Translations under genes and position numbers: made by a program
The notes under the pieces: model-generated
What the model was told of the DNA's origin: nothing
Database searches by the model: none
Seen by the model: the letters and a program-made list of their open reading frames with translations, nothing else
Part shown: positions 581 to 55,550 of the stretch, piece after piece
Position numbering within the stretch: position 1 is the first letter of the stretch
How the letters are laid out: each line of letters starts with the position of its first letter
Origin: Eledone cirrhosa
Taxonomy: Eukaryota
Direction: 5' to 3'
Length of the DNA: 64,000 nt
NCBI GenBank assembly: GCA_964016885.1
Contig: OZ024741.1
Span: 39,060,001-39,124,000, forward strand

Positions 581-674
581 ACCCCTTGAGAAGATCGGCT
601 ATTTAAATACCAGGATAAATTTTCATTTAGTCCAGAATTAGCCGTCGAAACGGCTTGAGCTCAGCTGTCGGGGT
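581..674 (+). ncRNA. Degenerate hammerhead with full-length stem III
   Basis: ACCCC-ttgagaa-GAtCGGCTA...TAGCCGTC-GAAACGGCT(tgagctc)AGCTGTC-GGGGT; CUGANGA box mutated. Confidence 0.55.
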
Positions 675-759
675 CTTACTGGTTCCTATATATATATATA
701 TATATATATATATATATATATATATATATATATATATATATATATATATATATATATAG

Positions 760-2218
760 TTAGGGAAGCAGAAAATTGCTTATTGTGATCCAGTTCGTGG
801 TTAAGAAAGGCAGTTTCATGGACGGTTTCAACGTACGGTTAGGGGTAACTCCACAAGTTTATAAGAATTCCGTTCAATCTTGGAGTATAAAGTATAAAAG
901 AGAAAACACAGGTAAGCATTAAGAGAAGTATTTTATCCAGGTATTTACGACCGTTTCATTGGTAAATGCAACCTTATATTGCTATACTGCAAATAGCAGC
1001 CACTCAATTATAATTGTTGTTCATGTCCAAATTTTCAAAATAGTGAGTAAGTTACTCTTGAAATAGTTCTTAATATATAGAGAAAAACATTTTTTGGGAA
1101 ATGTATTTACTAGTATAGAGAGAGAGGAACAGGAATTAGAAAGTGAGGGGACAAACGGAATAGTATAGAGAGAGAGGGAGGGGGAGAAGAGTTAGGAAGT
1201 AGAGTGACAAACTGAGATGGATGGGAGGGGTAGAGGTGGAAGGATTCCTTGATCAGTTTTGATACGTAGACTTCATGTCGTCGATTGTAGTGAGTTAAAT
1301 ACACCCTGAAGTGGAAAAAATTATCGAACGCGTCCCAATATCGGAGTGACATGAGAAACTGTCGATTATGTGAGCTGTTCCACATTTTGAGTGCGAAGAA
1401 TAAGTTACTCAACAATAAAATCGAAAGATCAATTTATTGTAACCATAGACTCAAAGAAAAGTTTTCGCACTACAAGTGCAAATCGAACCCTTAATCTCTT
1501 ACTACCAACTGACAAACTGCATATACTTAGACTTTATACCCTCTTATTATATCTAACCCCTTTAATTACCCACAAAAACCAATACCTATATCCCTCCCTT
1601 CTCCTTCATTCCTCTTCTATTTCTTTTTGTTTTCTTCCTTTCTTCCCTCCCCTTTTTGGCTATCTTTTCTTTTCTTCTTTCTCCCCTTTCTTTATTTTTA
1701 TCATTATTATTTTTATCTTTATTATTTTTTATATATATATTTATCTCTTTATATCTCCCCCCCCTCTCTCTCTCTCTCTCTCCATCCCTCCCACTATGAT
1801 CAATTTAATTCTATTTAACTCACTACAATCGACGACATGAAGTCTACGTATCAAAACTGATCAAGGAATCATTCCACCTCTACCCCTTCCTCCATCTCAG
1901 TTTGTTACTCTACTTCCTAACTCTTCTTCCCCTTCCTCTCTCTCTATACTATTCCGTTTTCGCCCTCACTTTCTAATTCCTGTTCCTCTCTCTCTATACT
2001 AGTAAATACATTTCCCAAAAAATGTTTTTCTCTATATATTAAGAACTATTTCAAGAGTAACTTACTCACTATTTTGAAAATTTGGACGTGAACAACAATT
2101 ATAATTGAGTGGCTGCTATTTGTAGTATAGCAATATAAGGTTGCACTTACCAATGAAACGGTCGTAAATACCTGAATAAAATCCTTTTCTTAATGCTTAC
2201 CTGTGTGTTCTCTTTTAT
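760..2218. mobile_element. Fold-back element, ~410-bp arms (894-1301 / 1812-2218), pLTR-like
   Basis: Arms are reverse complements with scattered mismatches; GAAACGGTCGTA half-core on each arm; flanked by (TA)n. Confidence 0.8.
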
Positions 2219-2369
2219 ATATATATATATATATATATATATATATATATATAAATATATATATATATATATATATATATATATATATATATATATATAT
2301 ATATATATATATATATATATATATATATATATATATATACACATGTATATGATATATATATATATATAT

Positions 2370-52339: not shown

Positions 52340-54560
52340 TATAATTCAAGAAAGAAGAGTAACATGGTTTGCTATACAATAAGGGCTTTATTCACATTGC
52401 TGACAATTGTTTCTCTGAACTGGTAGGTCTAGAGATCGCTACCCGCCTGTTTTTGCGTCAATCGATCACCAATACTTTGTTATAACCAGTCAATTCATCA
52501 GAGCATGCGAGAATGAAGGGAATACACAGGCATGACTTCTATATATAGTAGTGGCATTAAATCAGAACAATAATAACAATACTAATAATACCAGCATTCC
52601 TCGAATAAATTAGCTAGACCGTAAATAGTTAAAATAATCACAACATCAATCTAAGTAAGACATAGAGTATACTGATGACTTTAGCATGTAAAACGAGCTG
52701 ATACGAAGCAGATGTATGAAATTGACATGTAAAAGCTGTCATGGGGTGTATTATATATAGTGTAGAGATAACCTGGGGCTTGAAACAATGTACCATTTAC
52801 TTTACTGTAGGTTTATCTGACAGATAAAATATTTTCATTGTAGTGAGGATGGTAATTTTTATGTGGTGTAAAGTGGATTCACTATTTAAGTGGTCTATAT
52901 TCGAATCATGGGGTTGTTTAGCTTTCACAGCATCAATAACAAATCATGCATGGATAAGACAACAACAATAATAATAACAGCAATATAGTAGGTAAGTTAA
53001 TACAGAGGTTAAGGAAGCAAGGTATATATAGAGAGAACATGATGACTATAATTACGGATACATTGGGGTGTTCATTATAACAACAGGGGGAAGGTGATAT
53101 TTCAAGGACTGTGATAGTAGTCAAATAATGTACTTGGAATTAAGTTCGTCTGTTGAGAATCAAGAGTGAGGAGGTTGTGTTGACAGCAGCCGAGAAGAGA
53201 TATATTTATGGGTTGATAAGATATTTTCAGACATTACTGTGGTATAGAATTGAGGAGGCTAGAAGCTGCTTAAAGAATATTATAGTTCTGTGGTGGTCTG
53301 TGTGAGAGTGCGGATTTCATATGTTGAATGCTAAGTTATGTTAGTTCGAATCACGGTGGCTTAAATCTTGTGAATTTAGTAGTGATCCTGTGTCTGCAGA
53401 AAATTGACCTTTCTATCTTGTTGTTGAGTAGCCTTTTATCGTTCCTAAGGATATATAGTAATTCAAGGTCGCAGAGCCTACAATAGGACATACCGGTACT
53501 ATATGCCCTTGCGGCCGACAGCCTCGACCAGTTGATATTGTAGTCGATGTTTTTGTCCTTAAGTTCCCAGAGTTTTTTGGCGAGGGTTGTAGAACCTATT
53601 AGTCCACGGTTCTTCATCGAATGTCTGTGCACATACCATCTTTTTTAAAAGTACCCGCGGTGGATCCAATGTAATGCCAAGTGGAGTTGCCCGAGTTCAC
53701 CGTACACATGTACACTAGGCTCGAATCAAGGGACCTGTTCACCAATGGGCACCTATCTGGTAGGTGACAATTGCAGTTTGAGGTGTTATTCTGTGCAGCT
53801 TCCACACTGCTGTTTTGTACACTGCTATAAGTGGGTTGTGATTCGTGCCCGTTGAGGTTTTGTTGCGGCGCGCTCGTATGCGTTGCGGTTGTGAAACTGT
53901 GATGTTTATGTTTAGAATTTGGTTCTATGTTGCGCATAGGTGGGGCACATTCCCTAGAGGTATTTCTGTGCGTATGTGGGATTCTATATTTGCAGCTGTA
54001 GGGTATGAGAGTTTTATAGTTTTTCTATTGAGGATTTTATGATATCTATGTGATATAGGGAAGTGTTTATCTATTAGTTTAAAAAACGTAGAAGGCAGTT
54101 TTTACAGAGGAGTTGAAGATTGGATTAAACCCCAGGTATTTTCTTTCTCTAATTCTTCTATAGTTTCTAGGGTTTACATTATTCGTGTTTGGACCAACTA
54201 CTCTAGGTGCTATTTGCCTACTTCTATGTCTAGTCCTGTTACCTCTATTTTTGTGTGAGCGGTTGGTGTCAGTGTTAGTGGGTTTGTTTGAGTTGTCCTT
54301 ATCCGTTATAAATTACAGCTTTTCTTTGTGTCCGGCCCTATGTAATGCCGCGTTATAATAGTCAGCATGCTCATTAAAAATTTCTAGGTTTGAGGATAAG
54401 CGGGATATTCTAAAGGATATACTACGTGCTATGGATCTGATTATGGATCGGGGGTGGTTTGAATTATAACTAATGTAGGCCAGATTCTCATTATTTTTGT
54501 GGAAGGGTTCTTTTAAGCCCGTATTTAGATTTAGAGTTACATCTAGAAAGTTTGCCTTTT
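52340..54560 (-). mobile_element. Decayed 5'-truncated Penelope-like element (Naiad-like)
   Basis: Begins at [10 protein letters not shown] (~54550); CNCHLPDRCPL..LVYMCTV..YIGST..FKK; TTLAKKLWELKD..INWS..CRLCDLELLYIL. Confidence 0.88.
52398..52505 (-). ncRNA. Type-I hammerhead ribozyme with canonical core
   Basis: TGCT-CTGATGA-attgACTGG...CCAGTtcaga-GAAAC-AATT-GTC-AGCA; GUC triplet, palindromic stem III, long loop II. Confidence 0.8.
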
Positions 54561-54711
54561 TATGATTCAGTTCGTATATATATATATATATATATATATA
54601 TATATATATATATATATATATATATATATATATATATATATATATATATATTAAAATTGGTCTTCAACACTCTCATATATTTATGTATAAATATATATAT
54701 ATATATATATT

Positions 54712-55550
54712 TACTATATTATATTTTGAGATTAAACTCTCAGTCGTTTACAATTAATCAGCTCCAAGAAAGAGGCATTTCCGAGCAGTTAAATACATGT
54801 TATACATTAATATATATGATAAACACAAAACGTGTTTGCATTGTAACAGACAAAGTTAGCTATCAATGAAATAAACTAATTAAAGTGAATACAATTTGTC
54901 TGTCTCGATATAAGTTAATAAAGACAAGCTTATATTGGCAAAAGCCGTGATTCCTGGACAAATCTAAATTTCAAAATCCAAAATTTGAACTTCGAAACCT
55001 AAATATGTTTCGCAACGATGGTACATGAATTGATTAATTGTAAACGACTGAGTGTTTAATCTCAAAATATAATATAGTATATTGCTCCTTAACTGTAGAG
55101 CTGATCTTTAATCCCGTATAAGCGGCTGTTATTTCTAGCACCGGGAATGCGGGACGGCTAGTTTGGCTGGCTACACACACGTGTAGTCAGACCTTCAAAA
55201 TTTTTGATGGTGGAATGTACTAATTTTACTGGATTCCTGTTGATAAGCACAGAAGATTTGGATATTTCACTTTTTATTTCAATTCCATTTCGATTCTCTT
55301 TATTTTTCAATTCATGTACCATCGTTGCGAAACATATTTGGGTTTCGAAGTTCAAATTCATCTACGGAGCGGGTTTGGATTTCGAAATTTAAATTTGTCC
55401 AGGAATCACGGCTTTTGCCAATATAAGCTTGTCTTTATTGACTTATATCGAGACAGACAAATTGTATTCACTTTAATTAGTTTATTTCATTGATAGCTAA
55501 CTTTGTCTGTTACAATGCAAACACGTTTTGTGTTTATCATATATATATAT
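54712..55550. mobile_element. Fold-back element related to 7902-8680, circularly permuted arms
   Basis: 54712-54760 inverts 55032-55080; 54810-55030 inverts 55310-55550. Confidence 0.75.

Follow-up and report, generated by a model that had tools for sequence, protein, structure and literature searches.

Short fold-back inserts in (TA)n of the Eledone cirrhosa genome are head-to-head ends of Penelope-like elements, and the smallest are probably copies of an mRNA leader

The window analysed here is a stretch of 64,000 nucleotides (nt) of the Eledone cirrhosa genome (GCA_964016885.1, contig OZ024741.1, positions 39,060,001 to 39,124,000; contig C2 of the 3.0-Gb genome). It holds a dozen listed inverted-repeat inserts, and the question raised by this locus is what these fold-backs are and how they were made. 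Miniature inverted-repeat transposable elements (MITEs) are short, non-coding elements with terminal inverted repeats and a high copy number. A first-pass annotation had described the inserts as MITE-looking, hammerhead-bearing hairpins in which both ends of a broken (TA)n target each primed a complementary DNA (cDNA) and the two were joined, as part of a ribozyme/Penelope system. The fold-backs are not MITEs. Each consists of two pseudo-long terminal repeat (pLTR) ends of Penelope-like elements (PLEs), truncated at their 5' sides and fused head-to-head within (TA)n. The fuller reading, in which all fold-backs are such ends and the minis of families B and D are run-off copies of the element's mRNA leader, is favoured with moderate confidence.

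The inverted repeats were searched by self-BLAST of the window and were recovered at all 12 listed places, with identities of 71-98%. The 12 inserts represent nine families (A-I), with 593-2,373 first-look candidates per family in the genome. TA runs of at least 10 nt, at most 40 nt away, lie on both sides of 9 of the 12 inserts. The flanks of the family H insert are short (14/8 nt), the insert at 12732 has a TA run on one side only, and the insert at 35328 (family I) has none within 40 nt. The mostly (TA)n setting reported earlier was thus confirmed. The description of the inserts as non-coding fails for family A, because its spacer carries the last 57 codons of a Hydra-type endonuclease. The earlier bounds were too narrow where tails had been left out, and they are corrected to 759-2218 (A), 3283-3948 (C) and 32488-32690 (D).

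Families A, B, D, F and G are continuous with Hydra-type open reading frames (ORFs) for a reverse transcriptase (RT) and a GIY-YIG endonuclease (EN). Family A lies downstream of RT+EN in the sense direction in three of four extended loci (L210, L211, L213) and is inverted in L212. Similarly, F follows the RT+EN ORF in L219 and G does so in L224 and L225, and the family D leader/tail runs into a frameshifted Hydra-type ORF in L359. The family B sequence at 581-686 is the right end, without a tail, of a Hydra-type RT+EN insertion 4 kb long. This head-to-head insertion starts upstream of the window (L269:6643), and in it arms of 1,335 nt, 99.3% identical, flank a 5'-truncated RT-endonuclease ORF. 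An intact parent of family B was found as an array on contig C1, in which five 3,542-bp units with an open ORF of 719 aa (L352:3456-5612, minus strand) are accompanied by an inverted arm of 1.1 kb. As in PLEs, pLTRs are formed by copies in tandem and by inverted, 5'-truncated ones, and there is a size continuum from 120-nt minis to multi-kb ORF-bearing insertions with identical ends. Among the genomic copies of C, E, H, I and J no parent ORF was found. The Penelope origin proposed earlier is upheld by the ORF-bearing parents of A, B, D, F and G.

The B parent ORF was read by eye and shows SDKT, CNCPDRSIC, CNLC..EE and CKH, with a C-terminal EN and no CCHH; these correspond to the DKT motif, the CxCx5C linker and the CxxC and CxH that surround the conserved E and N of the Hydra clade. 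It deviates from the Hydra pattern by RWR in place of RWK, by the 3,542-bp unit and by the core TTGAGAA or CTGAGAA. It is a putative member of the Hydra clade, assigned by motifs. Pfam returned no family for the whole ORF of the large PLE of the window or for the B parent, and weak RVT_1 matches for fragments. PDB returned no match for the B parent protein.

The arrangement of the arms was examined in fold-back pools of 1.5-1.6 Mb, which consist of unselected blocks and of loci, many chosen by family queries. Whole-element queries select their own junction, and the claims on junctions therefore rest on tail-only and unselected samples. The 3' ends point outward in 64 fold-backs of B, 15 of D and 46 of eight other families, and no inward pair was met among these 125 fold-backs of 10 families, where inward pairs were counted only without TA between the arms. 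The outward ribozyme polarity noted earlier is thus general, and the window copy of family C cannot show it because its hammerhead lies in the spacer. Independently of family, an inverted partner lies 5' of 23 of 45 hammerheads matched by a strict descriptor (about 13 insertions) and 3' of none of them. Genome-wide lists contain 19 minus-plus and 0 plus-minus pairs within 100 nt, among the first 100 places listed. The enrichment of TA flanks was also verified: (TA)6 is found within 300 nt downstream of 35 of the 45 hammerheads, versus 19% of 2,512 random points.

A tail is present on exactly one arm in 115 of the 125 fold-backs (B 62/64, with 19/19 in unselected blocks; D 11/15; others 42/46), and on both arms in one. 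The junctions of B are copy-specific, with 64 distinct centres in 64 elements and overlaps mostly of -7 to +8 nt, which supports the earlier claim that two cDNAs were joined head-to-head. The centres of D are distinct in 15 of 15 unselected copies. The two arms are also coupled. A subfamily 9-mer is common to both B arms in 45 of 64 elements, versus 11% between elements. Of the first 100 long B arms listed, 60 stand in minus-plus pairs, and long arms make up about 7% of all arms. These counts point to one template class (subfamily, long or short) for both arms of a fold-back. The density of B arms (62 in 824 kb, of which 39 lie close to the window) is too uneven for extrapolation to the genome.

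The 5' ends of the arms stop at a wall. In family B the wall is the A of TTAGTC (window 629), 29 nt after the TATA-like TATTTAAA (window 600), and the stretch at 600-632 is a predicted promoter in the B pLTR, with a function suggested by its sequence. Relative to the wall, the exact 20-mers of B occur genome-wide 56,675 times at +9..+28, 3,604 times at -9..+10 and 3,901 times at -48..-29. This is a 15-fold step, followed by a plateau upstream. Only 15 of 159 aligned B arms reach -5 or beyond. In the B parent, the short 3' end lies at +58, the tail end at +138 and the first Met of the ORF at +231. In D, stem I begins exactly at the wall, TATAAATA lies 30 nt upstream of it, and the step is about 2-3-fold; 31 of the first 100 D core matches listed have the upstream 20-mer. 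In F, where the site was set from TATAAATA before counting, the counts are 962, 746 and 253 at +25, +4 and -20, a step of about 3-fold. The wall sites of B, D and F are all 29-30 nt after a TATA-like word, and that of F is about 60 nt upstream of its hammerhead. The first-pass annotation had overlooked the wall at the predicted promoter, the rule of one tail per fold-back and the link between the two arms.

The features of the window are as follows.

581-686, plus strand: family B pLTR end with a whole U3-A8-type hammerhead (core TTGAGAA at 586)
600-632, plus strand: predicted promoter within loop II of the family B hammerhead, TATTTAAA at 600 and initiator-like TTAGTC at 627
759-2218: family A fold-back, left-hand tail 759-893, arms 897-1301 (minus) and 1812-2215 (plus), 96% identity; the hammerhead trace is a GAAA-N6-UA half only
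1321-1494, plus strand: last 57 codons of the Hydra-type GIY-YIG endonuclease ORF, in the family A spacer
2370-2545: family B mini fold-back, tail left, inverted repeat 2452-2542, 87%
3283-3948: family C fold-back, tail left, arms 3388-3538 and 3796-3946, 98%; whole hammerhead with a long loop II at 3596-3673 (plus), in the spacer
4045-4220: family B mini fold-back, tail left, inverted repeat 4125-4217, 89%
7902-8678: fold-back without hammerhead, in TA, a distant relative of family J (72% over 123 nt to 55299-55420), absent from the earlier list
12717-12835: family D mini fold-back, TA on the left only, inverted repeat 12733-12822, 82%; whole hammerhead in the minus arm (12774-12736)
15550-18840, minus strand: decayed RT-EN element of Hydra type; its hammerhead at 15647 (minus) is F-related
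19834-28226: large PLE, ORF 24133-20330 (minus), partial tandem to 26041, inverted copy 26038-28226 (plus) with tail; minimal hammerheads at 20028 (minus), 24306 (minus) and 27974 (plus)
28269-28718: family E fold-back, tail right, inverted repeat 28269-28672, 76%; hammerhead core at 28428 (minus)
28771-28960: family B mini fold-back, tail 28877-28957 on the right, inverted repeat 28771-28876, 96%
31076-31428: family F fold-back, tail right, inverted repeat 31078-31328, 81%; hammerhead at 31229 (plus)
31504-32420: family G fold-back, tail right, arms 31505-31694 and 32112-32301, 90%; hammerhead-like motif with a CCGAUGA core in both arms
32488-32690: family D mini fold-back, tail left, inverted repeat 32566-32671, 94%; whole hammerhead 32622-32660 (plus)
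32704-33180: family H fold-back, tail right, inverted repeat 32705-33100, 88%; hammerheads at 32823 (minus) and 32980 (plus)
35322-35522: old family I fold-back, 71% identity; degenerate U3-A8-type motif
43525-43653, plus strand: single F-related pLTR arm, hammerhead at 43556
48893-48948, plus strand: single family B arm
54652-55540: family J fold-back without a visible hammerhead, with a partial tandem and a tail on one side

Other observations were made beside these features. The large PLE is very young, since its arms and tandem part are 100% identical over about 2 kb. Its ORF is open for 1,267 aa and includes a stretch with 42% asparagine (about 23040-23350) that recalls the N-rich inserts of rotifer Penelope. 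The copies of family J are 99-100% identical genome-wide, and both 54652-55540 and 7902-8678 have a PLE-like tail, tandem and inversion despite the lack of a hammerhead. Family C also occurs as ORF-less tandems of 659-669-nt units (L226, L227, L271, L272), each able to hold a whole hammerhead, and family I as a 151-nt head-to-tail tandem at L307 (G000:C12:37,421,095-37,421,622). The family D motif recurs every ~1,070 nt at G000:C1:83,679,810-83,685,218, and the strand-skewed counts of D suggest large arrays elsewhere. In the L063-L064 region (G000:C2, about 39,148,300-39,151,000) a hammerhead recurs every 466 nt, four in plus and two in minus orientation, head-to-head; this is a retrozyme-like tandem in PLE architecture. 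The region 56181-56970 was considered for the set and excluded. It consists of two inverted tRNA-like copies of the short interspersed element (SINE) type with their 5' ends outward, in TA and around an 86/66-nt tandem, with single relatives at 58937 and 61983. Their A/B boxes are presumed, and ARAGORN reported no tRNA in these copies. Short exon-like stretches on the minus strand at 11.9-12.4 kb (about 12110-12340) suggest that the window may lie within introns of a host gene. Minisatellites are located at 62777-64000 (47 nt, 26 copies) and 45344-46150 (38 nt, 21 copies).

The hammerhead motifs were searched with a strict type-I descriptor, which misses F, H, E and G; those were read by eye and from genomic copies. 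The descriptor matches six hammerheads in the window, three in minis (3596 plus, 12774 minus, 32622 plus) and three in the large PLE, versus a mean of 0.07 (maximum 2) in 30 shuffles. In unselected DNA of 824 kb, which includes the window, it matches 45, versus 0, 0 and 2 in shuffles. The shuffle control called for earlier thus places the motifs far above chance. An Rfam scan of the window showed no hammerhead family among the 150 of 226 matches listed, only microRNA-like ones driven by microsatellites. The CUGANGA/GAAA/UH core with stems I-III is present in C, D, F, H, the genomic copies of E and the large PLE. In F (31229, plus) and in both arms of H the hammerhead is whole with a bulged stem II, by eye, and in E it is canonical in genomic copies and damaged in both window arms. 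Four palindromic stem III words had been pointed out, and all were located; ATATATAT is found in the genomic copies of F, with one change in the right arm in the window. In stem I of D a compensatory change was seen, GATTC/GAATC versus GCTTC/GAAGC, by a tally of motifs.

A whole type-I core is lacking in A, the B minis, G, I and J, and no hammerhead was seen in J. The cores of G are CCGAUGA in 18 of 30 and CUGAUGA in 3 of 30. In the family G copies L105-L128, CCGAUGA amounts to a U4C change, and CUGAUGA may have arisen from CpG decay. The B minis retain only the GAAA-stem III-UC-stem I' half, the long B copies L331-L350 have the core TTGAGAA (U3-A8) in 17 of 20 and CTGAGAA (a mismatched C3-A8) in 3 of 20, and family I combines a core of U3-A8 type with a weak stem I. 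The claim that every insert bears a hammerhead therefore holds with whole motifs in C, D, E, F and H, and with degenerate or partial ones in A, B, G and I. No excess of arm ends marks the cleavage site: one B arm among 112 ends there, at +41 (8 end within +38..+43), and none of 34 D arms. Because A and the B minis have only a half, J has none and such an excess is absent, the hammerhead looks like a passenger, whole in family B only in the read-through RNA. The earlier idea of a ribozyme-driven system was not borne out.

How would such fold-backs be made? In the commonest family the arms end abruptly about 30 bases past a TATA-like box, so it is likely that the short leading part of the mRNA is copied from each of the two cut DNA ends. 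The GIY-YIG endonuclease would cut both strands of (TA)n, and one complex, probably dimeric, with one RNA would prime a cDNA from each cut end. The outer RT start site would give the tailed cDNA and the inner one the tail-less cDNA. On an mRNA begun at the pLTR promoter, both cDNAs would run off the 5' end after 60-140 nt, and end-joining would fuse them into a mini fold-back; a read-through tandem RNA would yield long ORF-bearing insertions instead. We infer the transcription start, the dimer and the end-joining steps from the analysis. A purified PLE protein (PAc) cuts and extends both strands of AT-rich DNA in vitro, its RT has two internal start sites, near the ORF start, which bound the tail, and the protein is predicted to be dimeric (PMC11167929). 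Hammerhead mutants leave insertion in vitro unaffected (PMC11167929). Two-ended priming at the target, as proposed earlier, is accordingly the likeliest route to the fold-backs on our analysis, and the extension of both strands in vitro agrees with it. The healing of pre-existing broken (TA)n was not supported, because an endonuclease is encoded by the parents themselves and the targeting of TA is a described trait of the Hydra clade (PMC8557442, in its available part). Because the PLE RT starts near the 5' end of its own mRNA, run-off fold-backs could arise from ordinary transcripts. Whether promoter-initiated PLE transcripts are systematically turned into symmetric run-off fold-backs, by one complex that copies one RNA twice, is in our estimate an even question.

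Several points weigh against the run-off reading. The transcription start at the wall is a prediction from sequence, and a search of sequencing runs listed no RNA data set as a holder. No clear wall 30 nt after a TATA-like word was seen in A, C, G, H and the large PLE, where samples are small and query-biased and the ends are mostly spread; the ends of A cluster in 5 of 33 near a TCACT word, 33-35 nt after TATATATTAA. The B box is a weak TATA variant, and in 6 of 20 long copies it is TATTCATATA or TATTCAAATA; the internal promoter of Drosophila virilis Penelope is described as TATA-less in the available part of PMC2377424. The counts of D carry a bias from tandem arrays (7,089 forward versus 4,229 reverse), and its alignment overstates the wall because the upstream part of diverged subfamilies failed to align. 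By eye, some 12 of 47 D arms extend further upstream, with arm extents that are unreliable in diverged subfamilies. The F series has no control further upstream, and all exact 20-mer counts vary with subfamily and CpG decay. Finally, the start sites of PAc are used equally on the two strands in vitro (PMC11167929), so the strict one-tail pairing is not predicted by these sites by themselves.

Other explanations were weighed on the same evidence. Snap-back self-priming, in which one cDNA or antisense RNA folds and is copied, has been proposed for rotifer Penelope and published for head-to-head junction palindromes (PMC3846280, available text). It accounts for the shared subfamily of the arms and could explain the single tail, and a few copies (L031, L033, L060) do jump between the stem I strands. 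However, a snap-back of fixed order predicts a longer first arm, and the tail arm of B goes further 5' in 27 elements and less far in 24 (P 0.78). The B joins are blunt in 9 of 64 elements or hold 1-7 extra bases in 24 of 64, which leaves no pairing to prime from, and self-priming is unlikely although the strongest of these competitors. Slightly less likely still is a wall that is not a 5' end but an RT stop at RNA structure or bound protein in the hammerhead of a long read-through RNA. The B wall does lie within loop II, with the stem II strand 10-15 nt further 3', and the D wall at the edge of stem I. That edge, however, is the far (5') one of the helix, the wall of F is well upstream of the hammerhead, and all three walls keep the same spacing from a TATA-like word. 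A stop made separately on each arm would also not pair long arms with long arms as observed.

If the short fold-backs instead spread whole from a few master copies, with centres later scrambled by palindrome instability, their fixed outer ends and near-constant length would follow, and a master would fix the one-tail pattern. One D junction is indeed present in all 20 top loci of the whole-element query, but these loci were picked by that junction, and the unselected centres are all distinct. Many subfamilies, including those with covarying stem I in D, share the wall, single arms also end there, and the continuum up to multi-kb ORF-bearing insertions has the same ends; a master-copy origin is improbable. 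The ribozyme version, in which RNA ends come from hammerhead cleavage and the system repairs breaks in microsatellites, draws on the excess of hammerheads over shuffles and on D arms that begin at the 5' edge of the ribozyme. It is very improbable in view of the arm ends at the cleavage site, the half ribozyme of the B minis, the likewise built J without one, and the endonuclease encoded by the parents. Hardly credible is an origin as true MITEs, mobilised by a TA-targeting DNA transposase. The inverted repeats at the termini, the constant ends, the flanking TA and the more than 50,000 arms would suit it, but the ends run into RT/GIY-YIG ORFs, and there are head-to-tail tandems. In place of the fixed symmetric termini and interior of a MITE, an asymmetric tail and variable centres, 64 of 64 distinct, were found.

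If the run-off reading is true, Hydra-type PLEs mass-produce retrotransposed MITE look-alikes (more than 50,000 arms in family B). The junctions would then record the transcription start of the element, and the pairing of tail and no tail would record an asymmetric two-ended integration. Abundant short inverted repeats of TA-rich invertebrate genomes may be misfiled as MITEs or unknown although they are retro-products, and scattered half and opposite-strand hammerheads would be explained. The inverted and tailed insertion mode of PLEs is an open question in PMC11167929 and in the available part of PMC8557442. Quantitative rules for it (polarity, one tail, one template class, wall) can be read from tens of thousands of tiny natural products, and the intact young B parent makes models of PLE integration directly testable with the purified-protein assay. 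Of the traits seen here, truncated copies in inverted orientation, a tail on one side, hammerheads and the targeting of TA are already published for PLEs; the B wall, the one-tail rule, the arm coupling and the distinct centres were not found in the literature. The literature search found no promoter run-off fold-backs or arm-coupling rules; prior description is possible, since subscription papers, Repbase entries and supplements were outside its scope. The word 'hammerhead' is absent from the main text, as available, of a recent repeat annotation of Octopus vulgaris (PMC13282606).

The elements were finally compared with known systems. The closest is the Hydra clade of C-terminal-endonuclease PLEs, for which hammerheads, TA targeting, inverted 5'-truncated copies, a one-end tail and a microsatellite bias are described (PMC8557442, available text). 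Shared with it are a short single ORF, the C-terminal GIY-YIG, DKT, the CxCx5C linker, the lack of CCHH, a pLTR hammerhead, the (TA)n target, tandem and inverted 5'-truncated copies and the one-end tail. The B unit differs by its length of 3.5 kb (published below about 3 kb), RWR for RWK, a mostly U3-A8 core and an 80-nt tail (published 30-40 bp), and the accessible part of PMC8557442 makes no mention of tens of thousands of leader-only fold-backs or of a promoter wall. Inverted pLTRs in PLEs are commonly head-to-head (PMC3846280, available text). Similarly, Penelope of Adineta vaga and D. virilis has head-to-head pLTRs, junction palindromes, an optional tail and solo pLTRs (PMC3846280, PMC2377424, in part), and TATA/Inr (initiator) is noted for the Pen2a pLTR (PMC3846280). 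Those elements are of low copy and their palindromes are explained by self-priming on an antisense template (PMC3846280), whereas the arm lengths here are unlinked to the tail and end at a predicted sense transcription start. The type-I hammerhead with a palindromic stem III, the U3-A8 variant and, in Schistosoma, opposite-strand hammerhead pairs 100-700 bp apart are known from minimal PLE hammerheads (PMC4209133, available text). Non-LTR retrozymes are head-to-tail with whole ribozymes (bioRxiv 10.64898/2026.07.22.740005, available text), whereas the present elements are head-to-head, often with half a ribozyme. Among these families, ORF-less tandems occur only outside the window, for C (659-669 nt) and I (151 nt), and these resemble retrozymes. 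Like the fold-backs, MITEs are short, with inverted termini, high copy and TA flanks, and they differ by the RNA-based origin, asymmetric tail and variable interior seen here. PAc (Poseidon, Anolis) shares the cutting and extension of both strands, two RT starts that define the tail, AT-rich targets and a dispensable hammerhead; inverted products and promoter run-off are not addressed there (PMC11167929).

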